Origin: an uncultured Eubacterium sp.
GTDB lineage: Bacteria; Bacillota; Clostridia; Oscillospirales; Acutalibacteraceae
Reading direction: 5' to 3'
DNA length: 45,494 nt
Assembly: GCA_910577215.1 (NCBI GenBank)
Contig: CAJTMQ010000005.1
Location: forward strand, 244-45,737
The position numbers were made by a program, and so were the translations under genes. Positions 6,012-25,678 of the stretch are shown piece by piece. The notes beneath the pieces are model-generated. The model was not told where the DNA came from and searched no databases. It saw nothing but the letters and a program-made list of their open reading frames with translations. Every line of letters begins with the position of its first letter. The first letter of the stretch is position 1.

Positions 6012-6188
6012 ATGTGTGAAAGAAAAACTATTAAAGAAGATGAGCTTGATATAGTGTTTGCTAAAGCAGCAGATTTAGTTATACAAAAAAAGAAGTTAAA
6101 AGGTGTTCCTATTTCCAGATATGATATAAAAACAAAAAGAGCTTATTTGGAATATCCGGACGGAAGGGTCGTTTATGCCGAAGCCTGA
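6012..6188 (+). CDS. Small 58-aa protein absent from the ORF track, putative antitoxin/partner of the downstream kinase
   Basis: Manually translated: MCERKTIKEDELDIVFAKAADLVIQKKKLKGVPISRYDIKTKRAYLEYPDGRVVYAEA*. Has a good RBS and promoter, and its stop overlaps the start of 6175 by 14 nt. Confidence 0.8.
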   Translation: MCERKTIKEDELDIVFAKAADLVIQKKKLKGVPISRYDIKTKRAYLEYPDGRVVYAEA

Positions 6189-6756
6189 AATTGTTGTAAT
6201 TGCCGGTCCGAATGGTAGTGGAAAAAGCACTTATACAGAATTTATCGTAGGACCAAATCAATTTGCTGATGAATCATTTGAGTACATTAATGCTGATGAT
6301 ATTCAGAAATCCACAAATTGCGATGCATTAGATGCGGCTGTTTTAGCAACCGAAAAAAGAGAAACTGCATTAAAAGAAAAAAGAAACTTTGCTTTTGAAA
6401 CAGTTCTTTCGACCAGAAGGAATTTAGACCTTTTGATAAAAGCAAAGGAGCAGGGATATTTTATAAGATGTTTTTACTTTCTTACCGCAAACGCTTCAAT
6501 TAATGTTCACAGAATTAATTCAAGAGTTGAGGAAGGTGGGCATGGAGTACCCGAAGAAAAAATCAGATCCAGATATGCCAAGGCACTGTCCTTAATTCCG
6601 GAATTAGTGAATGTGTGTGATTCATTAAATGTTTGGGATAACTCAACTGAAAAGCCGTACAGAATTTTTAGAAAGAAAAAAGATTGTATTGATATTTTTG
6701 AAAATCCTATTTGGGATATGGATGAGATTGAAAAATTAACAAGAATTAATGATTAA
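6175..6756 (+). CDS. Zeta-toxin-like / AAA_33 P-loop kinase (COG4185-like)
   Basis: Walker A AGPNGSGKST, INADDI, FAFETVLS, RVEEGGHGVPEEKIRSRY, WDNS. Confidence 0.85.
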   Translation: MPKPEIVVIAGPNGSGKSTYTEFIVGPNQFADESFEYINADDIQKSTNCDALDAAVLATEKRETALKEKRNFAFETVLSTRRNLDLLIKAKEQGYFIRCFYFLTANASINVHRINSRVEEGGHGVPEEKIRSRYAKALSLIPELVNVCDSLNVWDNSTEKPYRIFRKKKDCIDIFENPIWDMDEIEKLTRIND

Positions 6757-6791
6757 AATAGTGTTGGAGTGATTTCTCCAACACTATTTTT
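6755..6791 (+). terminator. Rho-independent terminator after the kinase gene
   Basis: Perfect 15-bp inverted repeat AAAATAGTGTTGGAG-tgattt-CTCCAACACTATTTT. Confidence 0.85.
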
Positions 6792-6976
6792 GTATAATCT
6801 GTATCATGAGAAAGGATTACAGTATTTACCAATCTGCAGATTAAAACTATACCGCAAGATTGAACTCATATGTAAGATGCTGTGGTTGATTTGGATTCTC
6901 CAATATGATTTTGCTAAATATACTGATAGTACAGAACACATTATATATAATATGGTATGCTTAATGTCGCAAAAGT

Positions 6977-7007
6977 AAAAAGGCTTTAACCCAAATAGTT
7001 AAAGCCT
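6977..7007 (-). terminator. Terminator of the minus-strand HTH gene
   Basis: AGGCTTTAAC-ccaaata-GTTAAAGCCT 10-bp stem with an A-run on its left (U-tail on the minus strand). Confidence 0.75.
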
Positions 7008-7009
7008 GT

Positions 7010-7210
7010 TTAATCTTCAATATATTCTAAAATATCTTCAACTCTGCATTTTAAAATTTTGCATAAATCATCAATTGTGAGAGTGCTTATACCTTGATTT
7101 TTTCTTAGTCTGTTAATTGTTGCACTACTTACATTATGTTTTTGAATCAGCGCATATGTGCTGATTTCTTTTTCTTTTATTGTATTCCAAAATGGTTCAT
7201 AAGTTATCAT
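7010..7210 (-). CDS. Cro/C1-type (HTH_26/XRE) transcriptional regulator, 66 aa
   Basis: MITYEPFWNTIKEKEISTYAL...VSSATINRLRKNQGISTLTIDDLCKILKCRVEDILEY. Start re-set to the ATG at 7210, preceded by a GGTGA RBS. Confidence 0.88.
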   Translation of the reverse strand: MITYEPFWNTIKEKEISTYALIQKHNVSSATINRLRKNQGISTLTIDDLCKILKCRVEDILEYIED

Positions 7211-7235
7211 TTTTATCACCATTTTAATATTAAAA

Positions 7236-7303
7236 TATAGTCTGATACTTGACAATAGTACAGATTATGACTATAATTAAATATGGTCACAAAGCTGACT
7301 ATA
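7236..7303. promoter_or_regulatory. Three palindromic operators, consensus TATAGTC-N8-GACTATA
   Basis: 7236 TATAGTC-tgatactt-GACAATA; 7254 AATAGTA-cagattat-GACTATA; 7282 TATGGTC-acaaagct-GACTATA. Confidence 0.75.
7249..7277 (+). promoter_or_regulatory. Consensus sigma-A promoter for the GLUG-repeat gene
   Basis: TTGACA (7249-7254)-17 nt-TATAAT (7272-7277), a perfect consensus. Confidence 0.88.
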
Positions 7304-7330
7304 AAATACTAAAAGTATGGAGAAAGAAGA

Positions 7331-8761
7331 ATGAAAAGAAAAAATATTGTTTTAGCTGGAATAGTTATATTTGTTGCTTTGGTTTTAGTTATATTTATTG
7401 TTATCAATAGTCGTCCGAAAACTTATAATAGTAATACAATAAATGGAGCGAATGTTGAACATATTAGTAATGTTGATGTTGAGATTACAACCCAGATTCA
7501 TAAAACAGAAGTTCCTGATGGATATATCGGAATATATACAGTTGATGATTTTGAATACATTAGAACAAATCCGTCTTATAATTATATCTTAATGAATGAT
7601 TTGGATTTTTCGGATGTTACAGATTGGAAATCTCCTAATATTAAAAGTATGTTTGATGGTAATAATTATTCAATAATGAATTTTATGCAAAATACATCAT
7701 TGTTCAGTGTTTGCTATGGAACAATACAAAATTTGAATATGCAAAACATTGAAATCAGTGGTAAATCCATACTTTGTAGAGAGTTGTCAGCATACTACCA
7801 TGATGATGAGAATCATTTATATCCAGGAACATTGAAAAATTGTAATATTGAAGGAAAAATAAATTATGCAGTAACGGATGCTGAAAGTGACGTAGTCAAT
7901 GTTGGAGGAATCATTTCATATGCAAAAGGTGATCCTTCTAATTCGGAAATAAGCCCAATAATAGACGATTGTATTTTCAATGGTACTATAAGTGTAACAT
8001 ATGCATTCGATAATTATTTCCAGAATAATAGCACCCATTTATTAATAGGCGGTATTGTTGGATTTATTGATGAGGGCACAATTTCTAATTGTATAACTGG
8101 TGGAAAAATAACATATAACGAAACTAACATGGAAAACAACTGGGACAATCTTTTGGCAAATATTGGTGGAATTGCAGGAAGTACTGGATACGGAACAATA
8201 GAAAATACCAAAAATGAAATTAACATTGTATCAAATAGTGAATCTATAAATGCGGCTGGAATTGTTGGACTTGTAGGTAAGCAATTAAAATCAACTGTAA
8301 TTAGCGGATGCTGCAATTTAGGAAACATAACTTTGCAAGAAAAGTATAGTGGATCGGTTATAGATTCGTCTATAAAAGCAGGTGGAATTATTGCGAATTA
8401 TGATTATCCGTATTTGCCTACTATTTACAATTGTTATAATTCGGGAAGCATAACAGCTAATAACGTTGGAGGATTGTCATGTTGTTCAGCAAATTTAAAA
8501 TTCTGTTATAATATTGGTGAAATTAAAGGAACAAATAAAGCGGGAGCTTTGCTTTGTGATAAAAATGAAAATATTGAATATTGTTATTCTCTCAATAATG
8601 GTGTTGATGTTACAAGTGATGGCGGCAAATATCCTTATGTTAAAGTACTTTCGGAAGAAGAAATGAAAAATCAATCTTCGTTTGAATGGTTGAATTTTAA
8701 TGATGTTTGGACTTTTTCAGACGGCGAATATAAGTATCCCACATTAAAAAATTGTCAATAG
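7331..8761 (+). CDS. Membrane-anchored extracellular GLUG-motif (beta-helix-like) repeat protein
   Basis: N-terminal MKRKN plus a hydrophobic anchor. YILMNDLDFS...FDGNNYSI head motif. Repeated (V/I/A)GGI(V/I/A)G units with I.NC.N.G.I spacers. C-terminal EEMK..SSFEWLNFNDVW...YPTL. Confidence 0.75.
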   Translation: MKRKNIVLAGIVIFVALVLVIFIVINSRPKTYNSNTINGANVEHISNVDVEITTQIHKTEVPDGYIGIYTVDDFEYIRTNPSYNYILMNDLDFSDVTDWKSPNIKSMFDGNNYSIMNFMQNTSLFSVCYGTIQNLNMQNIEISGKSILCRELSAYYHDDENHLYPGTLKNCNIEGKINYAVTDAESDVVNVGGIISYAKGDPSNSEISPIIDDCIFNGTISVTYAFDNYFQNNSTHLLIGGIVGFIDEGTISNCITGGKITYNETNMENNWDNLLANIGGIAGSTGYGTIENTKNEINIVSNSESINAAGIVGLVGKQLKSTVISGCCNLGNITLQEKYSGSVIDSSIKAGGIIANYDYPYLPTIYNCYNSGSITANNVGGLSCCSANLKFCYNIGEIKGTNKAGALLCDKNENIEYCYSLNNGVDVTSDGGKYPYVKVLSEEEMKNQSSFEWLNFNDVWTFSDGEYKYPTLKNCQ

Positions 8762-8770
8762 TATATAACT

Positions 8771-8800
8771 AAAAGAATCCCTCTGTGAGGGATTCTTTTT
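8771..8800 (+). terminator. Rho-independent terminator
   Basis: AAAAGAATCCCTC-tgt-GAGGGATTCTTTTT. Confidence 0.88.
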
Positions 8801-8863
8801 ACATTTAAAACCATTTTGGCGAATATGCCCAAAAACAATTTTTATTTTTGTTGCCAATATTGA

Positions 8864-8892
8864 TTGCGATAAATTTCATACTATGTTATAAT
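8864..8892 (+). promoter_or_regulatory. sigma-A promoter of the SCP2/aminotransferase/transketolase operon
   Basis: TTGCGA-17 nt-TATAAT with an extended -10 TG. AAGGAGG RBS precedes the TTG start at 8939. Confidence 0.72.
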
Positions 8893-8938
8893 TTTATCAA
8901 ATATAAAATTTTTATAAACTGCACAAGGAGGAATTAAT

Positions 8939-9703
8939 TTGAAAGAAGCAAAAGCAATGGCATATGTGAATATGTATGGCGTACTTGCAACTCTTGAAAA
9001 CCTTTGTGAAATAGATGATGAGGCGAAAGCAGTATTAAGCACCCTTAAAAAGCCTGTTTCACTTTGCTTTGATGTTGCAGGCGGTCCTTGCTGCACATTT
9101 AATTTTACGAAAGACGGATGTAAAATGACAGAAGGTACTGTTGGTTGTACCTGCAAAATGAATTTTGCATCACCCGAAAAGTTCAATGCTCTTATTGACA
9201 ACAGCAAGCCGGGTGTTCCTGTAAAGGGAATAGCTCAGGTACTGTCCTTCCTTTTAGGTCCGTTCACGAAGCTTACAGACAGGCTCACAAAGCTTTTAAT
9301 GCCGAATGAAGAGGATTTGAAGGACAGAGCATTCTTTGAGGAATCCACTGTTTTAACATTTTACACAATTGCAGGTGCAATTTCTGCTCTTGCAAATTCA
9401 GATTCTATATCTATGTTTACGGCACAGAGCACGGTAGACGGCTCCGTTTTAATGGGTATTAAGGATACCTGCTATGCAACAATCACCGTAAGAAATCATG
9501 AGTTCAAAACAATTAAGGAAAAAACAGCCGCTCCAAGAGCAATTATGGAATTTGCCGATATTGATTTGGCATATGGATTGTTTACAGGCACCGTGTCAAC
9601 GATTGCCGAGCTTTGCAAGGGCAATATACATATGGCAGGCATGATTTCCATGGTAGATAATCTGAACCGTATATTAGACAGAGTTGCCGCTTATCTTGGT
9701 TAA
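8939..9703 (+). CDS. Hypothetical protein with two SCP2 (sterol carrier/lipid-binding)-like domains
   Basis: TTG start with AAGGAGG RBS. The C-half pattern (ATITVRNHEF...IMEFADIDLAYGLFTGTVS....LCKGNIHMAG..SMVDNLNRIL) resembles the SCP2 fold, and the N-half has a similar pattern. Paralogous to 12974-13771. The fold call is by eye. Confidence 0.55.
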   Translation: MKEAKAMAYVNMYGVLATLENLCEIDDEAKAVLSTLKKPVSLCFDVAGGPCCTFNFTKDGCKMTEGTVGCTCKMNFASPEKFNALIDNSKPGVPVKGIAQVLSFLLGPFTKLTDRLTKLLMPNEEDLKDRAFFEESTVLTFYTIAGAISALANSDSISMFTAQSTVDGSVLMGIKDTCYATITVRNHEFKTIKEKTAAPRAIMEFADIDLAYGLFTGTVSTIAELCKGNIHMAGMISMVDNLNRILDRVAAYLG

Positions 9704-9720
9704 TGTTGGAGGATGATAAT

Positions 9721-11001
9721 ATGAGTAAATTTCCTGAATATAAACACGAAAAAAGCCAGGAATGGTTTAACAGAGCACTTGATGCCATTCCGTCAGGTGT
9801 ATATGGTCATTTAGGTCCGAGTGAGGGCTTGTTTCTCCCCATCACCAAATGGCCTTTAATGTCACAGAAAGCTAAGGGTACATATTTCTGGGATGTAGAC
9901 GGTAATAAATATCTTGATTTAATGTGTGCTTACGGTCCCAACGTTCTCGGCTACTGCGATGATGATGTTGATGCTGCTGCTATGGAGCAGCTCCGAATCG
10001 GAAACTGCACAACCTCACCATCATATAAAATGGTAGAATGTGCAGAAATGCTTAAGGATACCGTTGCAAGTGCGGATTGGGCATTCTTTATGAAAAACGG
10101 CTCTGATGCAACAACCTTCTCCGTTATGTGTGCAAGAGCACATACGGGCAAGAAGAAAATGCTGTTTCTCAAGGGCTACTATCACGGTGATTTCCAGTGG
10201 GCGCAGAAGATGGACTATCCGGGTATTCTTCCTGAGGATGTTATGCATAATGTTGTAGTTCCGTGGTTTGATATTGAAGCACTTAAGAAGGCTTATGATG
10301 AATGCGGCGGAGATGTTGCAGGTCTTATTGCACAGCCTTATGACCACGGCAACTTTAAGGATAATGAGTGCGCTACAAAGGATTATTGGCAGCAGGTTCG
10401 CAAATTCTGTGACGAACGCGGAATAGTTCTTATTTTTGATGATGTACGTACAGGCTTCCGCCTTGATATTGCAGGTTCGGATCATTATTACGGAATCAAG
10501 GCAGACCTGATCTGCTTCTGTAAAGCTCTTGCAAACGGATACAATATGTCTGCCGTTTGCGGCGGTGAGCATATGAAGGCAACTGCATCATCTGTTACAT
10601 ATACAGGCTCTTACTGGATGAGTGCTGAGCCGTTTGCGGCTTGTCTTGCATGTATTCCGAAAATGAAAAAACTTGATATTCCTAACCTCTTCCGTAAGGT
10701 CGGAACAAAGCTTACACAGGGCTTTGTTGATGCAGGTAAGGAGCACGGCTTTAATCTTGTTGTTTCGGGTGAACCCGCACTGTTTTATTTAAGAATAGCG
10801 AATGATGACAGCTTAATGCTTCATCAGGAATGGATTGCGGAATGTGTTTCAAGAGGTCTTTTCCTTGCATCGCACCACAATCACTTTATTAATGCTGCAA
10901 TCACAGACGAGGATGTGAAGCTTGCGATTGATATTGCTGAGGATGCTTTCAGCGTTGTTCAGGCGAACCATCCGGAGCTTGATTTATCACCAATCAAATA
11001 A
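9721..11001 (+). CDS. Class III PLP aminotransferase (glutamate-1-semialdehyde aminotransferase-like fold, probably a different substrate)
   Basis: AKGTYFWDVDGNKYLD, YGPNVLG, KNGSDA, GYYHG, LIFDDVRTGFR, ADLICFCKALANG (PLP Lys). A GGAGG RBS supports the ATG at 9721; an alternative ATG at 9703 overlaps the upstream stop. Confidence 0.85.
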   Translation: MSKFPEYKHEKSQEWFNRALDAIPSGVYGHLGPSEGLFLPITKWPLMSQKAKGTYFWDVDGNKYLDLMCAYGPNVLGYCDDDVDAAAMEQLRIGNCTTSPSYKMVECAEMLKDTVASADWAFFMKNGSDATTFSVMCARAHTGKKKMLFLKGYYHGDFQWAQKMDYPGILPEDVMHNVVVPWFDIEALKKAYDECGGDVAGLIAQPYDHGNFKDNECATKDYWQQVRKFCDERGIVLIFDDVRTGFRLDIAGSDHYYGIKADLICFCKALANGYNMSAVCGGEHMKATASSVTYTGSYWMSAEPFAACLACIPKMKKLDIPNLFRKVGTKLTQGFVDAGKEHGFNLVVSGEPALFYLRIANDDSLMLHQEWIAECVSRGLFLASHHNHFINAAITDEDVKLAIDIAEDAFSVVQANHPELDLSPIK

Positions 11002-11019
11002 TTTTTAGGAGGAAATCTT

Positions 11020-11913
11020 ATGCCAGCAAATTTTAAGCCGTTTGATAAGGAAGAATGGCTTCGTCTTGAAAAAAAGGCAGATGAATTAAGGCGCCTTACC
11101 GTTAAAACAGCAGTTTGGGGCGGTTCGGGTCACATCGGCGGTGCAATGAGTGCCATGGATGCCATGACAATTCTTTACCACCGTTTTATGAAATTGGATG
11201 TTAATAATCCCGATATGGAGGACAGAGATCGTTTTGTTCTTTCAAAGGGTCATTCGGCAGTAGGATATGCTCCCGTAATTGTTGATTACGGCTTTATGCC
11301 TGAGGAAGAGCTCCATATCTTTAATCTTACAGGTGCAAAAATCGGTATGCATCTTGACTGCAATAAGGTTAAGGGTGTTGACTGCTCAACGGGTTCACTC
11401 GGTCACGGAATTTCTCTTGCAGTTGGCTTTGCTCTTGCAGGCAGAGTAAACGGCATAGACTATATGAATTATGTTATTACAGGTGACGGCGAGCTTAACG
11501 AGGGCTCCAACTGGGAGGCTGCTATGAGTGCCGCTCAGTTCAAGCTTTCAAATGTTGTTGTTCTTTGTGACATCAATAAATGTATGATTGACGGCAGGGT
11601 TGACGATGAAATGAAGGTTGAACCTGTTGATAAAAAGTTTGAAGCATTCGGCTTCAACGTTATCCGTGTTAACGGTCACAATATGAAGGAACTCAATGAT
11701 GCAATTGAGGCTGCAATCAAAAATCATCAGGACGGCGGAGATAAGCCTACTGCTATTGTTATGGATACAATCAAGGGTGCAGGTGTTGACTTTATGGAGG
11801 ATAATTACCTCTGGCATTACGGCTCACTTGACGAAGCAATGGTAGAAAAAGCAACCGCATCACTTGATCATTATTATAAGGCTCGTTGCGAGCGTGCAGA
11901 AAAGGAGGCATAA
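11020..11913 (+). CDS. Transketolase-like enzyme, N-terminal (ThDP-binding) subunit
   Basis: SGHIGGAMS, DRFVLSKGH, STGSLGHG, ThDP motif GDGELNEGSNWEA...DIN, VNGHN, TIKGAGV..ME...WH. Confidence 0.92.
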   Translation: MPANFKPFDKEEWLRLEKKADELRRLTVKTAVWGGSGHIGGAMSAMDAMTILYHRFMKLDVNNPDMEDRDRFVLSKGHSAVGYAPVIVDYGFMPEEELHIFNLTGAKIGMHLDCNKVKGVDCSTGSLGHGISLAVGFALAGRVNGIDYMNYVITGDGELNEGSNWEAAMSAAQFKLSNVVVLCDINKCMIDGRVDDEMKVEPVDKKFEAFGFNVIRVNGHNMKELNDAIEAAIKNHQDGGDKPTAIVMDTIKGAGVDFMEDNYLWHYGSLDEAMVEKATASLDHYYKARCERAEKEA

Positions 11914-11917
11914 GAAT

Positions 11918-12928
11918 ATGGGCGGAATGACATATACTATGACAGATACAACCAAACTCTCAACAGCTGAGTGTTATGGTATTGCACTTTGCGAGCTTGG
12001 TGAAGAGCACAAGGATGTTGTTGCTCTTACTGCGGATCTTGCAAAATCAACCAAAATCGGTATGTTCGGCGAGCAGTTCCCTGAGCGTTTCTTCAACGTT
12101 GGTATTGCGGAGCAGAATCTTTTCGGTGTTGCGGCAGGTATGGCTAAAAACGGTCTTGTGCCTTTTGCTTCAACATTTGCTATTTTTACAGCAGCCCGTT
12201 CTTTAGACCAGATTCACACGGACATCTGCTATCAGAATGTTCCTGTTAAAATTATTGCAACACACGCAGGCACCTCCTTCGGTCAGGCAGGCTCAACGCA
12301 CCATTCGCTTATTGATATGGCTTGTATGAGAAGTTTGCCGAATATGACCGTAATCTGCCCCTGTGACGGTGCGGAAACATATCATGCAGTTAAGGCTGCA
12401 TATGACATTGAAGGTCCTGTTTACATTCGTATTAACCGCGGCTTTGATCAGGTTATTTATAAGAATGTTGAGGACTGCAAATTTGAATGGAATAAATCCA
12501 CCCTTATGAATGACGGTACGGATATTACCGTTATTGCCTGCGGCTCCTGTGTGTTTGAAGCAATGCAGGCTGCACGTATAGCTGAGGCAGATGCAGGTCT
12601 TAAGGTTAGAGTTATTAATATGCATACAATCAAGCCTGTTGATGAAGAGGCAATTATGAGTGCAATTATGGATACACGCCGTATCATAACTGCAGAGGAT
12701 CACGAGGTTATGGGCGGTCTTGGCTCTGCCGTTGCAGAGGTTGTTGCAAAGTCAGGCAAGGCTTGCGCATTTAAAATGCTCGGCCATCAGAATGCATTTT
12801 CAACAATCGGTCTGCAGGAGGATTTGCTTGCTATGGCTAAAATTGATGCAAACGGTATTGCCGAAGCAATTCAGGAAATGATGCATGCCGATTTTGAAGC
12901 AGATGATGCTTGGGATGACGAATTCTAA
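11918..12928 (+). CDS. Transketolase-like enzyme, C-terminal (pyrimidine-binding + C-terminal) subunit
   Basis: ADLAKST, FPERFFNVGIAEQN, PFASTFAIF, GPVYIR, MHTIKPVD, EDH..GGLGSAVAE. Start re-set to the ATG at 11918 after AGGAGG. Confidence 0.92.
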   Translation: MGGMTYTMTDTTKLSTAECYGIALCELGEEHKDVVALTADLAKSTKIGMFGEQFPERFFNVGIAEQNLFGVAAGMAKNGLVPFASTFAIFTAARSLDQIHTDICYQNVPVKIIATHAGTSFGQAGSTHHSLIDMACMRSLPNMTVICPCDGAETYHAVKAAYDIEGPVYIRINRGFDQVIYKNVEDCKFEWNKSTLMNDGTDITVIACGSCVFEAMQAARIAEADAGLKVRVINMHTIKPVDEEAIMSAIMDTRRIITAEDHEVMGGLGSAVAEVVAKSGKACAFKMLGHQNAFSTIGLQEDLLAMAKIDANGIAEAIQEMMHADFEADDAWDDEF

Positions 12929-12973
12929 ATTTTCAGTTTCAGTATTATTTGTTTATGAAAGGAATGTGTTATT

Positions 12974-13771
12974 ATGTCTTCTGATGAAGCTCGTTACACC
13001 AATAAGGTGTTTATGGCAGGCGCTCTGCCGCTTATGAAAACTATTGCAACCGATGTTCCTGAGCTTGCTAAGAAATTTGCGGGTGTTCATGCTGTTTATC
13101 AGGTTTCCGCAAAGGTAAATGCACAGGATAAGGAGGCCGTTCACTTTATTGTTGAGGACGGTGAATGGTCCTGCAAGCTTGGTGAATACTTCGGTCAGCA
13201 GAAAATTGATGCAGAGCTTGAATTTTCATCAATTGAAAAGATGAACGCTTTTATGAAGGGCGATATGTCTAAGCTTCCGAAAATGAAAATTAAGTCTTTA
13301 TCTAAATTTGTTAAGTTTATGGCTGTGCTCCTTAAAATGAGCAGCCTTCTCGGCATTAAAGAACCTCCTGAAAATGATGAGGAAACTTCGGTGCTTCTTT
13401 GTAAGCTTTATTTCTATCTTCTTTCAAGCGGTATCAGCCAGCTTAACAAATTAGGTCATCCTGCTATTCATGAATGGACTCTTAAATCGCCCGACCGCTG
13501 TTATCAGTGGGAGGTTGTGGGTCATCCCGAATGCACAGCGTATATCCGCATTAAAGCAGGAAAATCACGTGCAGGCAGGGGAGAATACAAAAGAGCAAAG
13601 CCGTTTTTCTGTATGAAATTTGATACACCTACGTCGGCTCTTAAAATTCTTCTCGGTACAGGCGATATGTTCCAGATGACTGCTGATAAGCAGCTTATGA
13701 TGGAGGGTGGTCCTGAGTTTGGTGTTCAGATTGGTGACTATATGATGGTTGTAGGCGATCTTGCAAAATAA
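12974..13771 (+). CDS. Hypothetical protein with two SCP2-like domains (paralog of 8939-9703)
   Basis: VHFIVEDGEWSCKLG...DAELEFSSIEKMNAFMKG and AYIRIKAGK...CMKFDTPTSALKILLG.GD.......QLMMEG, both SCP2-like patterns. AAAGGA RBS. The fold call is by eye. Confidence 0.55.
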   Translation: MSSDEARYTNKVFMAGALPLMKTIATDVPELAKKFAGVHAVYQVSAKVNAQDKEAVHFIVEDGEWSCKLGEYFGQQKIDAELEFSSIEKMNAFMKGDMSKLPKMKIKSLSKFVKFMAVLLKMSSLLGIKEPPENDEETSVLLCKLYFYLLSSGISQLNKLGHPAIHEWTLKSPDRCYQWEVVGHPECTAYIRIKAGKSRAGRGEYKRAKPFFCMKFDTPTSALKILLGTGDMFQMTADKQLMMEGGPEFGVQIGDYMMVVGDLAK

Positions 13772-13826
13772 AAATAAGAGCCTGACTTACCATAGGCAAG
13801 TCAGAATCCCGATAACCGATAAAATT

Positions 13827-13858
13827 AACACCGTTGTTTTTAAAACAACGGTGTTTTT
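13827..13858 (+). terminator. Rho-independent terminator closing the five-gene operon
   Basis: AACACCGTTGTTT-tta-AAACAACGGTGTT-TTT. An extra imperfect hairpin (CTGACTT..AAGTCAG) lies at 13782-13804. Confidence 0.85.
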
Positions 13859-23394: not shown

Positions 23395-24686
23395 TGAAGT
23401 TTAAAGTTATTGGTGCAGGTCTTGCGGGTGTTGAGGCTGCGTGGCAGATTGCAGAAAGCGGGCATACGGTTACCCTGTTTGAGCAGAAGCCCGATAAAAA
23501 GTCACCTGCACATAAATCTGATAATTTTGCAGAGCTTGTTTGCTCAAATTCGCTTAAGGCAAGCAGAATAGATTCTGCCGCAGGACTTCTTAAAGAGGAA
23601 ATGGCAAGGCTTGGCTCGCTTACTGTTCCCGTTGCACGTGAATGTGCAGTTGCAGCAGGCGGAGCACTCGCAGTGGACAGGGATATATTTTCGGAAAATA
23701 TCACTCAAAAAATCAAATCTCACTCGAACATCATTATTGTGAATGAAGAGGTTGAAGAAATTCCCGTGTCGGATGATACAGTAACCATTGTTGCAACAGG
23801 TCCGCTTACATCCGGTAAAATGAGTAATGCTATTCAGGCGCTTTGCGGTGACTGTCTTTCCTTTTATGATGCTGCGGCACCTATAGTTACGGCGGAGTCT
23901 GTTGATATGAGTATTGCTTTCGGTGCTTCAAGATATGACAGAGGCGGCGAGGATGATTATATCAATTGCCCGTTTAATAAAGAAGAATACGAAAACTTTA
24001 TAAATGAGCTTGTTCATGCCGAAGGTGCAGTGCTTCACGATTTTGATGTTTATGAAGGCTGTATGCCGATAGAAAAGCTTGCAAAGCGCGGAATGGATGC
24101 ACCAAGATTCGGTCCTATGAAGCCTGTTGGTCTTATCAATCCTGCAACAGGTCATCGTCCGTGGGCAGCAGTTCAGCTCAGAAGAGAAAATGCTGAGGGC
24201 ACAATGTTTAATCTTGTTGGCTTTCAGACTAATCTTAAATTCGGTGAACAGAAAAGAGTTTTTTCAATGATACCGGGACTTCAGAATGCTGAATTTGTAA
24301 GGTATGGTGTTATGCACAGAAATTCATTTCTTGATTCGCCAAGGGTGTTAAATAAAGATTTTAATATGAGAAAATATCCGTCCGTTTTTTTTGCAGGGCA
24401 GATAACAGGTGTTGAGGGTTATATGGAATCCGCGGCATCAGGTATAATTGCAGGTATGAATGCCGTAAGATATGCTGACGGCAAGGAACTTATCAGCCTG
24501 CCGAAAACAACAATGACAGGGTCACTTTCATCATACATAAGTGATAAAACAGTTAAAAACTTTCAGCCTATGGGTGCGAATTTTGGTATTCTGCCGCCTA
24601 TAGAGCCGAAAATAAAGGACAAGCGTGAGCGTTATGCCGCACTTGCAAAAAGAGCACTTGATGCTCTGGATGAGGTAATAAAATGA
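23394..24686 (+). CDS. trmFO: Folate-dependent tRNA (uracil-5-)-methyltransferase
   Basis: IGAGLAGVEAA, AELVCSNS, AGGALAVDR, YDAAAP, FGPMKPVGL, VGFQTNLKFGEQ, YGVMHRN, AGQITGVEGY. Confidence 0.97.
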   Translation: MKFKVIGAGLAGVEAAWQIAESGHTVTLFEQKPDKKSPAHKSDNFAELVCSNSLKASRIDSAAGLLKEEMARLGSLTVPVARECAVAAGGALAVDRDIFSENITQKIKSHSNIIIVNEEVEEIPVSDDTVTIVATGPLTSGKMSNAIQALCGDCLSFYDAAAPIVTAESVDMSIAFGASRYDRGGEDDYINCPFNKEEYENFINELVHAEGAVLHDFDVYEGCMPIEKLAKRGMDAPRFGPMKPVGLINPATGHRPWAAVQLRRENAEGTMFNLVGFQTNLKFGEQKRVFSMIPGLQNAEFVRYGVMHRNSFLDSPRVLNKDFNMRKYPSVFFAGQITGVEGYMESAASGIIAGMNAVRYADGKELISLPKTTMTGSLSSYISDKTVKNFQPMGANFGILPPIEPKIKDKRERYAALAKRALDALDEVIK

Positions 24687-25678
24687 AAATTATAGTTGAT
24701 GCTTTCGGCGGAGATCATGCACCGCTTGAAATTATTAAGGGTGCAATGCTTGCAGTTGAGGAATACGGAATAGACGTTATTCTTACCGGTGACGAAAAGC
24801 AGATTTCCGAATGTGTAAGGCAGAACAATATAGAACTTAAGAATACAGAAATTGTTCATACATCAGGCAAAATTGATATGTGTGATGATGCAAGGGCTGT
24901 GCTTAAAGAAAAAGCCGATTCAAGTATGGGTGTTGGCTTTAAGCTGCTTAGCGAGGGAAAAGGGGATGCCTTTGTTTCGGCAGGAAATACAGGTGCGATA
25001 ACTGTCGGTGCAACCTTTCTTGCAAAAAGAATTAAGGGTGTTAAAAGGCCGTGCATTGCTTCTGTAATGCCAAGTGCCGATAATCCTATTTTACTTATGG
25101 ATTGCGGTGCAAATGCAGAATGCAGAGCTGAATTTTTGTATCAGTTCGGCTTTATGGGAAGCCTTTATATGAAGAATATTTTAAAGGTTGAAAATCCTAA
25201 GGTTGCTCTTGCCAATAACGGTACAGAGGAAACAAAAGGCACTTCTGTTGTTAAAGAAGCGTATGAACTGATGAAAAATGCAGATTATAATTTTGTAGGA
25301 AATATAGAGGGCAGGCAGATTCCGTTTGGCGATGCAGATGTTGTTGTTGCAGACGGATTTGCAGGCAATTTAATTCTTAAAACATATGAGGGTGTAGCAA
25401 AGGTTCTTATGAACGGAATAAAGGATATTTTCAAGAAAAATCTTTTTTCAAAGCTTTGTGCACTTGGTGTTATGGGCGGAATTAATGATATGAAAAAACA
25501 GTTTGACTATAAGGAATACGGCGGTGCAGTGTTGCTTGGTGTTAAAAAACCCGTTGTCAAGGCACACGGCTCTGCAGATGCACGCACGTTTAAAAATGCC
25601 ATTAAACAGGCAGTATGGTTTTTAGATAATAATTTGATTGATGAAATAGAAAAGGCGTTCAGTAAGGAAAATGAGTAA
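24683..25678 (+). CDS. plsX: Phosphate acyltransferase PlsX
   Basis: IVDAFGGDHAP, VSAGNTGA, RIKGVKRP, DCGANAE, GTEETKG, DGFAGN, GGAVLLG, KAHGS. Confidence 0.96.
   Translation: MKIIVDAFGGDHAPLEIIKGAMLAVEEYGIDVILTGDEKQISECVRQNNIELKNTEIVHTSGKIDMCDDARAVLKEKADSSMGVGFKLLSEGKGDAFVSAGNTGAITVGATFLAKRIKGVKRPCIASVMPSADNPILLMDCGANAECRAEFLYQFGFMGSLYMKNILKVENPKVALANNGTEETKGTSVVKEAYELMKNADYNFVGNIEGRQIPFGDADVVVADGFAGNLILKTYEGVAKVLMNGIKDIFKKNLFSKLCALGVMGGINDMKKQFDYKEYGGAVLLGVKKPVVKAHGSADARTFKNAIKQAVWFLDNNLIDEIEKAFSKENE

Follow-up and report, generated by a model that had tools for sequence, protein, structure and literature searches.

The 45,494-nucleotide stretch of DNA analysed here (the window), from an uncultured Eubacterium sp., carries a five-gene operon for two SCP2-like proteins (carriers A and B), a class III PLP aminotransferase and the two subunits of a split transketolase, and we put the probability at roughly one half that these proteins form a dedicated two-step pathway in which a hydrophobic 2-amino-1,3-diol of the sphingoid-base type would be deaminated and then cleaved, yielding a fatty aldehyde together with a C2 unit. 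What we establish below is the gene structure, the transcription of the genes as a block, the predicted folds and family relations of their products, the residue changes in the transketolase and the modular synteny.

Features of the operon and its boundaries (positions in the window)
Feature	Position	Strand	Remark
Terminator hairpin of upstream GLUG-repeat gene	8771..8799	+	13-bp stem; upstream boundary
Sigma-70-type promoter TTGCGA-17-TATAAT, TG-extended -10	8864..8892	+	10/12 matches to consensus
Carrier A, tandem SCP2-like protein, 254 aa	8939..9703	+	TTG start
Class III (FumI-like) PLP aminotransferase, 432 aa	9703..11001	+	PF00202; 1-nt overlap with carrier A
Split transketolase N subunit (ThDP/PP domain), 297 aa	11020..11913	+	PF00456
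Split transketolase C subunit (Pyr + C-terminal domain), 336 aa	11918..12928	+	PF02779 + PF02780
Carrier B, tandem SCP2-like protein, 265 aa	12974..13771	+	AF2 fold
Intrinsic terminator, downstream boundary	13827..13855	+	13-bp stem then T run; terminator scan

The five genes are co-directional (8939-13771), with intergenic spacings of -1 to 45 nt, and are flanked by a GLUG-repeat protein upstream and by pyruvate kinase, YceG, thymidylate synthase and DHFR downstream. The start of carrier A lies 7 nt past AAGGAGG (8925-8931), and ATG 11918 is the likely start of the C subunit because the orthologues are 336 aa long, a TTG at 11864 being the alternative in the ORF listing. The upstream hairpin folds at -17.3 kcal/mol (z -5.2, with none of 200 shuffles equally stable) and the downstream terminator at -16.4 kcal/mol (z -3.6); the former was not picked up by the terminator scan. 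The promoter motif is weak by itself because the region shows no excess of promoter-like sites (24 versus 19.4 +/- 4.8 in shuffles); it is backed by its position and by the RNA data.

The five genes are transcribed as one block. RNA contigs from four metatranscriptome runs of mouse gut, belonging to three studies, gave cover limited to the operon block (8944-13820; 8955-13825, in two overlapping contigs; 8930-13788; and 8936-13811, in pieces), with starts at 8930-8955 and ends at 13788-13825. In all four runs cover over 7300-8925 was zero, and the depth over the downstream pyruvate kinase was far below that of the block. Gene calls, hairpin folding and RNA cover thus confirm the original prediction of a five-gene unit with its own promoter and a terminator on either side, and its statement that the unit lacks a sugar transporter, kinase, isomerase or regulator was borne out, no transporter of any kind nor any of the other three being found among the genes of 8939-13771.

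The arrangement recurs elsewhere, as had been anticipated. Among 87 loci taken as the best matches to carrier B, 76 hold all five genes together, 71 of them in the order A, aminotransferase, N subunit, C subunit, B, four reordered as N subunit, C subunit, B, A, aminotransferase, and one as two modules; seven others are interrupted by contig ends. These counts overstate independence, given that the loci are mostly close kin chosen by their match to B, but two further genomes across the phylum also hold all five genes together, and the synteny extends over several families. In the nine more distant genomes in which homologues of A or B were located, each A homologue adjoins an aminotransferase, and B adjoins a transketolase in all but one (G342), where B stands alone. 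The operon is thereby resolved into two mobile modules, one pairing carrier A and the aminotransferase, the other the transketolase and carrier B. Neighbouring genes in other genomes concern aldehyde handling or the response to hydrophobic ligands: a Zn-alcohol dehydrogenase and a MerR regulator near operon genes in G144 and G427, where the dehydrogenase follows the transketolase-B module; an aldehyde:ferredoxin oxidoreductase, a glyoxalase and a TetR regulator in G383; and TetR beside operon genes in G773 and G611. The family is very widespread, with at least 584 relatives confirmed in the 600 matched stretches listed. The host itself is a mouse-gut relative of Eubacterium coprostanoligenes, whose strain ATCC 51222 also has the operon, and its genus includes that cholesterol reducer.

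Neither carrier is matched by Pfam, its SCP2 model included, and NCBIfam gave no match to carrier A. The AF2 models of A (pLDDT 95.2, pTM 0.92) and B (pLDDT 93.5, pTM 0.90) nevertheless predict, with high confidence, two SCP2-like domains in tandem in each: VIA aligned residues 132-252 of A with 3bn8 (Z 11.1) and human SCP2 (10.8), residues 137-263 of B with human SCP2 (Z 11.2) and residues 11-126 of B with 2cx7 (Z 8.7), and Foldseek matched B to SCP2, UbiJ and the SCP2 domains of alkylsulfatases. The SCP2 fold proposed originally for the flanking proteins is therefore the one adopted in both predicted structures, while the single domain proposed for each has to be replaced by two. The carriers are distant paralogues of each other (BLASTP E 5e-5, 27% identity). 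The family of A comprises 1164 homologues and 376 clusters at 50% identity, and the Atlas clusters closest to it carry the automatic name 'putative SCP2 domain-containing protein'. Lipid binding does not follow from the predicted fold.

The aminotransferase (PF00202, 125.9 bits) finds its best PDB match, and by sequence its closest solved relative, in the aminopentol aminotransferase FumI (6hbs; E 6.8e-82, 279 bits, residues 22-430), the best glutamate-semialdehyde aminomutase scoring 156 bits. The PLP lysine of the operon enzyme, K274, is invariant in 12 orthologues. According to PMC3136697, FumI deaminates hydrolysed fumonisin B1 with pyruvate as acceptor, and the authors liken this substrate to sphinganine. 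The substrate, hydrolysed fumonisin B1, is a sphinganine-like 2-amino-3-ol, so that the kinship with FumI points the same way as the original prediction of an operon for a hydrophobic 2-amino-1,3-diol, which we regard as supported. Identity to FumI is about 37%, counted on the alignment match line, and the operon enzyme is thus further from FumI than the validated fumonisin transaminases are from one another (61-75%, PMC9858248).

Complex prediction supports docking of carrier A on this enzyme, its C-terminal SCP2 domain being placed on aminotransferase residues 22-48 and 169-173. The ipSAE of 0.61 (runs 0.61, 0.60 and 0.64; best of three controls 0.00), a mark attained among solved complexes by 58 of 80 and among mismatched pairs by 2 of 110, is the predictor's self-confidence from self-built alignments; contact agreement was at least 78% and partner pLDDT at least 89.

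The transketolase subunits are closest in the PDB to split transketolases, the N subunit (PF00456, 157.9 bits) matching 6yak at 220 bits and the C subunit 6yaj at 277 bits. In E. coli TktA numbering the N subunit keeps H26, H66, H100, H261, D155 and N185, and the C subunit keeps H461, H473, E411, R520 and S385. Residue mapping on TktA placed A17 of the C subunit at R358 and A124 at D469, with further changes P27I, P101L, G262Y and L466F. Of the 88 C subunits compared, 81 share this replacement pattern, with Ala or Gly for R358 and D469 in the aminotransferase-linked copies of eight lineages. Since both residues are Ala here and the other split transketolase of the genome, a canonical one, has R at 358 and D at 469, the operon enzyme is by its sequence not an ordinary transketolase; it keeps all the catalytic histidines but has a remodelled, greasier pocket. 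H100 and H473 we take to read the C1 hydroxyl, so that a 1-hydroxy ketol would be preferred to a methyl ketone. D469 is reported to hydrogen-bond to sugar hydroxyls and select stereoisomers, H100 and H473 being among the other residues that bond to them (PMC11387542), and mutations at R358, S385, D469 and R520 to make E. coli transketolase more accepting of non-natural aldehydes (PMC7661550).

From this we infer a substrate, a chemistry and a direction. Carrier A, presumably cytosolic, would hold the greasy amine and dock on the FumI-like aminotransferase, which would transfer the amino group at C2 onto a keto acid, leaving a 1,3-dihydroxy-2-ketone, whose HOCH2-CO-CHOH-R head group is of the transketolase donor type. 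The split transketolase, having lost both the Arg that clamps sugar phosphates and the Asp with which the next hydroxyl is read while keeping its catalytic histidines, would then cut C2-C3 on ThDP to give a long-chain aldehyde and a C2 glycolaldehyde unit, the latter going to an acceptor that is probably a sugar phosphate; carrier B may handle the ketol or the aldehyde. Natural D-erythro sphingoid bases have a C3 hydroxyl opposite in configuration, by CIP-rule reasoning, to that of transketolase donors. This mismatch counts against sphingoid cleavage, as does the (S)-selectivity that all ten wild-type split transketolases retained in PMC13663882. The distance from FumI also counts against the pathway, as do the retained R520, H461 and S385, because of which sugar phosphates may remain the main transketolase substrates, and the lack in the operon of an enzyme for the aldehyde product; the one strong aldehyde dehydrogenase that the genome encodes belongs to the methylmalonate-semialdehyde type.

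In principle either reaction can also run in reverse, and the operon might instead join a scavenged fatty aldehyde to the C2 unit of xylulose-5-P, fructose-6-P or hydroxypyruvate, the resulting (3S)-1,3-dihydroxy-2-ketone being aminated to a sphingoid-like 2-amino-1,3-diol. The selectivity of split transketolases and the FumI substrate, which is 3S, would suit such a threo product better than they would the breakdown of natural erythro bases, the aldehyde:ferredoxin oxidoreductase and alcohol dehydrogenase neighbours could equally supply aldehyde, and RNA cover in vivo with no regulator in the genus suits a housekeeping lipid function. We nonetheless think this direction unlikely: acyl reductase, N-acyltransferase and head-group enzyme are absent in or beside the operon, the TetR or MerR genes beside it in four other lineages resemble inducible detoxification, and FumI, the closest characterised aminotransferase, is catabolic. 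If true, it would be an amino-diol route independent of serine palmitoyltransferase. Those same TetR and MerR neighbours would also fit a different hydrophobic amine as substrate, either an aminopolyol of 1-deoxy or polyhydroxylated type, of which hydrolysed fumonisin and the AAL-type mycotoxins of feed are examples, or some other amino alcohol with a long chain; the operon would then serve chiefly to detoxify dietary toxins or xenobiotics. Hydrolysed fumonisin B1 is a known FumI substrate, and carrier organisms came, by the titles of the matches listed, from rumen, deer, goat, rabbit, chicken and mouse samples. This reading too we think unlikely: the family is very widespread, the laboratory-mouse gut in which the operon is transcribed is no obvious fumonisin habitat, and the retained H100 and H473, as we read them, favour a 1-hydroxy ketol.

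The amine could also be soluble, an amino sugar or aminopolyol, with the tandem SCP2-like proteins as structural or regulatory enzyme subunits. This would accord with the retained phosphate-site residues R520, H461 and S385, with the silence of the Pfam SCP2 model and with G730, where an amino-acid permease precedes the A-aminotransferase pair and genes for GH1, GH2, an SDR and an AraC regulator lie nearby. It is made rather improbable by the loss of one phosphate-binding Arg and the next-hydroxyl Asp and the gain of bulkier hydrophobic residues, by best fold matches of A and B that are all lipid-binding SCP2 domains, by a nearest aminotransferase relative that acts on a lipid, and by the absence of kinase, isomerase and sugar transporter from the 71 conserved loci, where scoring covered homologues of the six query proteins. 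A steroid side chain, the main alternative in the original prediction, is now disfavoured. DesAB is likewise a split transketolase, hypothesised in PMC3735941 to cleave cortisol, and a like enzyme would cut a 17-hydroxy-20-keto-21-hydroxy side chain with the SCP2 proteins carrying sterol; the genus has its cholesterol reducer, and the Zn-dependent dehydrogenase of G144 and G427 follows the transketolase-B module as desC follows desAB. Cortisol-type substrates would give an aminotransferase nothing to do, yet 76 of the 87 loci have one adjacent, and HSDH and symporter are absent from the operon, which leaves this reading very improbable. A chance pairing of HemL with a pentose-phosphate transketolase we consider barely credible. 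Pfam names both subunits transketolase and HemL models are the second-best NCBIfam matches to the aminotransferase, but far under their cut-offs (192.8 versus 398; 178.6 versus 527.3); a search of the 98.4% complete genome turned up no ALAD gene, whereas 11 of 14 control genomes have one; and the canonical split transketolase elsewhere in the genome and the cohesion of the five genes across families contradict it further.

Sphingoid bases are membrane-active antimicrobials, and the sphingoid-cleaving pathway would therefore detoxify them. No match to FabF/B, FabZ/A or FabH was found in the host genome (98.4% complete), in which PlsX is present; as the host encodes no fatty-acid synthase, the pathway would let it gain an acyl chain, along with an amino group and a C2 unit. 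No prior description of such a pathway was found in the literature searched, and if our reading is true, removal of the sphingoid amine followed by transketolase cleavage would be a route not yet described.

Gene calls placed the five genes on the forward strand between 8939 and 13771 of the window, tightly packed and co-directional as the original prediction had held, with the class III aminotransferase (AT) and the N and C subunits of a split transketolase (TKN and TKC) lying between two flanking proteins, A and B, that are putative carriers. The gene and domain calls also agreed that the unit is without a transporter, a kinase or a regulator, and the predicted promoter and hairpins were recovered by motif scan and by folding energies. 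The start codon of A is TTG and lies seven bases 3' of AAGGAGG. The promoter motif by itself proves little, since such motifs are no commoner in the region than in shuffled sequence (24 against 19.4 +/- 4.8), and the upstream hairpin was not reported by the terminator scan, probably because its stem swallows the T run. A GLUG-repeat protein is encoded upstream of the operon, and pyruvate kinase, YceG, thymidylate synthase and DHFR are encoded downstream.

Coordinates of the operon genes and of the predicted signals around them
Feature	Position	Strand	Size or basis
Upstream hairpin	8771-8799	+	-17.3 kcal/mol, z -5.2
Promoter TTGCGA-17-TATAAT, extended -10	8864-8892	+	motif scan
A	8939-9703	+	254 aa
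Class III aminotransferase	9703-11001	+	432 aa
Split transketolase N subunit	11020-11913	+	297 aa
Split transketolase C subunit	11918-12928	+	336 aa
B	12974-13771	+	265 aa
Downstream terminator, 13-bp hairpin then T run	13827-13855	+	-16.4 kcal/mol, z -3.6

Between 81 and 93% of the stretch's sampled words were present in six metatranscriptome runs from three studies, mouse-gut or faecal by their records, and for four of the six (X15, X16, X17 and X19) RNA contigs were compared with the window. A single RNA contig spans 8944-13820 in X15 and 8930-13788 in X17, two overlapping contigs span 8955-13825 in X16, and 8936-13811 is covered in pieces in X19; contigs of this kind can prove neither a single transcript nor its exact ends. 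Cover was zero over 7300-8925 in all four runs, which argues against DNA carry-over, and the depth of pyruvate kinase was much below that of the operon (8 against 68 in X15, a depth that was not used for ranking expression because the runs were chosen for containing this stretch). The operon is transcribed in vivo, and its RNA-contig boundaries match the predicted promoter and terminator in the three studies.

None of the four runs had RNA contigs over the 476-aa GLUG-repeat protein that adjoins the operon upstream (7331-8761). At 6175-7255 a zeta-toxin/AAA-like P-loop protein (193 aa) stands beside a divergent Cro/C1-type HTH protein (81 aa), and the two may be a toxin-antitoxin or phage-remnant pair. 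An X16 RNA contig of 3028 nt matches the window over just 30 bases (9679-9708), where A meets the aminotransferase, before continuing into unlike sequence, and may represent a strain variant or an assembly chimera.

The operon is widespread in gut and rumen Clostridia. Within the genus, A occurs in 20 of 24 further genomes; among single genomes of the order's other families it occurs in none of 16, while a profile of B matched 7 of 399 genomes sampled across the class and a profile of A matched 16 of 401 across the phylum, seven of them strongly. The cultured Eubacterium coprostanoligenes ATCC 51222 carries all five genes at 70-90% identity. In a species-genome collection at least 584 relatives of B were confirmed among the 600 matched stretches listed, and the best 80, strain ATCC 51222 among them, were taken for locus comparison. 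The synteny on which the original prediction was to be judged was found, with all five genes together in 76 of 87 loci, which are mostly kin given that 80 of them were picked as closest matches. The order A-AT-TKN-TKC-B occurred in 71 of these loci and TKN-TKC-B-A-AT in four, and in one the two modules lay on opposite strands; seven loci were cut by contig ends, two had TKN-TKC-B only, one A-AT only and one B only. The phylum search added five further loci, two with all five genes, two with A and the aminotransferase only, and one with A, the aminotransferase and the N subunit followed by the contig end. From these arrangements, A always accompanies the aminotransferase, and B accompanies the transketolase save in one genome (G342), where it occurs alone.

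The surroundings of these loci vary. TetR neighbors the cluster in two genomes (G773 and G611), and in another (G383) the neighbors are a glyoxalase, an old-yellow-enzyme-type reductase, TetR and an aldehyde:ferredoxin oxidoreductase. In G144 (locus L024, 2445-6329) and G427 (L025, 1134-5017) the transketolase-B module lacks an aminotransferase and is followed by a 405-aa Zn-dependent alcohol dehydrogenase and MerR, a layout that recalls desAB-desC of Clostridium scindens with an SCP2 protein inserted. An A-aminotransferase pair without transketolase in G730 (L136, 3507-10826) has an amino-acid permease directly upstream and an AraC regulator, GH1, SDR and GH2 nearby, and may reflect a glycosylated amine substrate or a deamination-only variant. 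The lone B-like protein of G342 (L027, 2108-7263) is distant (25% identity) and sits amid lipid genes, namely those for a DUF4474 protein, a metallophosphoesterase and glycerol-3-phosphate dehydrogenase, together with a protein having a phosphatidylglycerol lysyltransferase C-terminal domain.

Neither A nor B matched a Pfam family up to an E-value of 10, PF02036 included, or any NCBIfam model. Each has more than 1000 homologous protein clusters, of which the named ones are all "hypothetical protein", and the homologues of A comprise 376 representatives at the 50% cluster level. A and B align with each other by BLASTP (E 5e-5, 27% identity) and, judged from this comparison, are distant paralogues. 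Confident AlphaFold models of B (pLDDT 93.5, pTM 0.90) and A (pLDDT 95.2, pTM 0.92), built from alignments of 26 and 47 sequences, contain a helix-sheet-helix unit twice in each protein; the alpha/beta SCP2 fold is defined by a five-stranded sheet packed by helices. In a VIA structural search against all PDB representatives, residues 137-263 of the B model matched human SCP2 (Z 11.2, rmsd 2.8, 112 aligned residues) and residues 11-126 the SCP2 structure 2cx7 (Z 8.7), and the C-terminal half of A matched 3bn8 (Z 11.1) and human SCP2 (Z 10.8). Foldseek gave a probability of 1.00 to SCP2 and UbiJ chains and also listed the alkylsulfatase SCP2 domain; the nearest ESM Atlas clusters are auto-named "putative SCP2 domain-containing protein", and in one of them 10% of the members carry PF02036. 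Given the agreement of model, VIA, Foldseek and Atlas matches, the label "SCP2-like" in the original prediction was right as to the fold, which both AlphaFold models display (best Z 11.2 and 11.1), and has to be amended as to number, as each flanking protein holds two such domains in tandem.

In UbiJ and in alkylsulfatases the SCP2 domain assists an enzyme with a hydrophobic substrate. SCP2, UbiJ and the C-terminal domain of SdsA1 share the alpha/beta fold of A and B (Z 8.3-11.2), but A and B differ from them in having two SCP2-like domains per protein of ~260 aa and in being a pair of paralogues, one linked to each enzyme. Longer, fused versions of A were searched for and none was found, which is weak evidence. 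A predicted complex of A with the aminotransferase, made from author-made input alignments, reached an ipSAE of 0.61 (0.61, 0.60 and 0.64 in three runs), as against 0.00 for the best of three controls; 58 of 80 solved complexes come up to that mark, and so do 2 of 110 mismatched pairs. Contacts agreed by at least 78% between runs and partner pLDDT was at least 89, the predicted interface joining the C-terminal SCP2 domain of A (157-247) to aminotransferase residues 22-48, 169-173, 217-218, 369-375 and 391. We know of no solved SCP2-aminotransferase complex that the prediction model could have remembered. The prediction supports, but does not show, the binding of A to the aminotransferase.

The aminotransferase matched PF00202 at 125.9 bits (cut-off 30.5) and has the PLP-binding lysine of class III enzymes, K274, which does not vary among 12 orthologues and lines up with FumI's lysine. 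Its top PDB match was 6hbs, an aminopentol aminotransferase (E 6.8e-82, 279 bits, residues 22-430, ~37% identity counted from the alignment match line), and the best glutamate-semialdehyde aminomutase in the PDB scored 156 bits. The 6hbs enzyme is FumI from Sphingopyxis sp. MTA144, which takes the amino group from C2 of hydrolysed fumonisin B1 (2-amino-12,16-dimethylicosane-3,5,10,14,15-pentol, likened by the authors to sphinganine) and transfers it to pyruvate, leaving a 2-ketone (PMC3136697). FumI and the window enzyme are both class III PLP enzymes, and FumI deaminates C2 of a sphinganine-like 2-amino-3-ol. As the validated transaminases of fumonisin are 61-75% identical to each other (PMC9858248), the window enzyme is a more distant relative of FumI and not a demonstrated member of that group. 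The FumD/FumI system includes a carboxylesterase, whereas the window has none, and the portions of the FumI account that we drew on mention neither a transketolase step nor an SCP2 partner (PMC3136697).

The best NCBIfam models for the aminotransferase were GntE (206 bits) and HemL (193 bits), both far under their cut-offs. Identity as HemL was rejected (scores of 192.8, 178.6 and 156.9 against NCBIfam cut-offs of 398, 527.3 and 637), and a HemL role is unlikely given that ALAD had no match in the host genome, which is 98.4% complete, and was found in 11 of 14 control genomes.

PF00456, PF02779 and PF02780 all scored above their cut-offs in the transketolase subunits, whose best PDB matches were to the split transketolase of Carboxydothermus hydrogenoformans (6yak/6yaj; 220 bits for the N and 277 bits for the C subunit), an enzyme of the same alpha2-beta2 split architecture. 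In numbering taken from alignment to the E. coli tktA product, H26, H66, H100, H261, D155, N185, E411, H461, H473, S385 and R520 are kept, and the ThDP and Pyr domains, the activating Glu and the catalytic histidines are all present. The sugar-phosphate pocket retains S385, H461 and R520 but has lost R358 and D469, both now Ala where the C. hydrogenoformans enzyme has R and D; the changes comprise R358A, D469A, E468Q, P27I, P101L, G262Y, L466F and Q474H. A second split transketolase of the genome, on another contig, has the canonical R, E-D and G. The window pattern was found in 81 of 88 C subunits compared, all 81 of them B-linked. In two distant genera the aminotransferase-linked C subunits carry Gly or Ala at both 358 and 469, and the C subunits of G144 and G427, with no aminotransferase nearby, keep R358 and have Ala at 469.

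Mutations at R358, S385, D469 and R520 alter the acceptance of non-natural aldehydes by E. coli transketolase (PMC7661550; PMC5073344), and D469 is among those that form hydrogen bonds with the sugar hydroxyls and discriminate between stereoisomers (PMC11387542). Given these roles, the loss of R358 and D469 makes the pocket look adapted to a donor or acceptor without the phosphate and the next hydroxyl, such as an alkyl chain.

In G049 (L026, 1636-3392) a third type of split transketolase adjoins the cluster, with a pocket more divergent still than that of the operon enzyme (H461 Asp, D469 Asn and E468 Ala). In a long-read-style assembly of a MAG chromosome (L097, 6943-10328) TKC is in two pieces and pyruvate kinase in three, probably through frameshift errors and not because these are real pseudogenes.

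We propose that A would hold a sphingoid-type 2-amino-1,3-diol, which the FumI-like aminotransferase would convert to the 1,3-dihydroxy-2-ketone. The specialised transketolase would then cleave this ketol to a long-chain aldehyde and a ThDP-bound C2 unit and hand the latter on to an acceptor, and B would deal with the ketol or the aldehyde. We infer every chemical step of this pathway, and put the probability of the substrate class and chemistry at about 0.5; sphingoid bases specifically, and the catabolic direction, are held with less confidence than that. The five-gene unit of the original prediction is confirmed, and its interpretation draws support from sequence and fold as well as from synteny and transcripts.

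The host genome (98.4% complete) had no match to FabF/B (PF00109), FabZ/A (PF07977) or FabH (PF08545), and therefore apparently relies on outside acyl chains; PlsX is present (24683-25678 of the window). A full-length FabF-type match was found in none of 24 genomes of the genus, five having short thiolase-like matches only, and fatty-acid auxotrophy seems to extend to all of the E. coprostanoligenes-like genus. However, a full FabF match is also missing from 8 of 16 non-carrier genomes of the order and is present in the carrier G383, and thus the loss of FASII is context, not proof, for the operon. The strong aldehyde dehydrogenase of the genome was considered as a fatty-aldehyde enzyme and rejected, as it is of the methylmalonate-semialdehyde type.

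By analogy, the operon would work like a fusion of FumI-type lipid-amine deamination with the lipid-ketol cleavage of DesAB. DesAB, the C. scindens steroid-17,20-desmolase, has been proposed to split a lipid's HOCH2-CO-C(OH) ketol and to pass the C2 unit into the pentose-phosphate pathway (PMC3735941), and, going by that description, it and the operon transketolase are each a second, divergent split transketolase in a gut Firmicute. In the operon, the ketol must first be produced by transamination, while desABCD, as far as that source describes it, also encodes a Zn-dependent 20-alpha-HSDH and a symporter but neither an aminotransferase nor SCP2 proteins (PMC3735941). The operon enzyme is split as DesAB is, but its unit has neither a dehydrogenase nor a transporter, and a steroid desmolase is a very improbable reading.

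The main objection to sphingoid-base cleavage is stereochemical. Natural erythro sphingoid bases give a (3R) ketol. Transketolases, ten split ones included, are (S)-selective (PMC13663882), and the loss of D469 may or may not change that selectivity. Cleavage of the natural erythro bases fits less well than would a threo substrate or the synthetic direction; the same chemistry run in reverse is, even with this advantage, unlikely. Its fullest form, in which gut Clostridia that encode no fatty-acid synthase make sphingoid-like 2-amino-1,3-diols by joining fatty aldehydes that they scavenge to a C2 unit from sugars, is a shade less likely again; as transketolases are (S)-selective, threo (safingol-like) products would be expected. 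So far as we know, such Clostridia have no serine palmitoyltransferase. If true, synthesis would give sphingoid bases a second biosynthetic origin, unrelated to the first, and would supply the gut with unusual bioactive lipids. Other hydrophobic amines, such as hydrolysed fumonisins, are as doubtful a substrate as synthesis is a direction, a soluble aminopolyol is somewhat more doubtful, and a housekeeping role is scarcely credible. Cleavage of a lipid amino-diol is the reading that we prefer.

Engineered one-pot aminodiol synthesis has reportedly been published, and transketolase-transaminase cascades, among them engineered biocatalytic routes to 2-amino-1,3-diols, interconvert aldehyde, alpha-hydroxyketone and amino-alcohol, as the operon would. 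Neither the engineered cascades nor the AniP/AniQ pair of anisomycin biosynthesis is, to our knowledge, known to run towards cleavage, and both are without carrier proteins. In the anisomycin pathway AniQ transaminates the product of the AniP transketolase; AniP is described as a single chain without the histidine-rich motif, with aromatic keto acids as its substrates (PMC11387542), whereas the operon transketolase is split and keeps all the histidines. We found no description of the five-gene set or of the pathway in the literature, with subscription journals and supplements lying outside the search. Transketolase-aminotransferase pairs are known from biocatalysis and anisomycin biosynthesis, with different enzymes and aims, and the operon brings in a new family of tandem-SCP2 partner proteins.

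Sphingoid bases are antimicrobial and signalling lipids that derive from the host, the diet and Bacteroides, and their disposal by bacteria is an open question. Pseudomonas aeruginosa, for example, turns sphingosine into an unknown product (PMC11893366). The operon offers a chemically complete and testable route, from amine to ketol to fatty aldehyde and C2 unit. If confirmed, this route would introduce a sink for sphingolipids into models of lipid signalling in the gut, account for the harvesting of acyl chains by bacteria that have no fatty-acid synthase, provide a wild-type transketolase for long aliphatic aldehydes that would be useful in biocatalysis, and assign a function to a large family now annotated as "hypothetical proteins".
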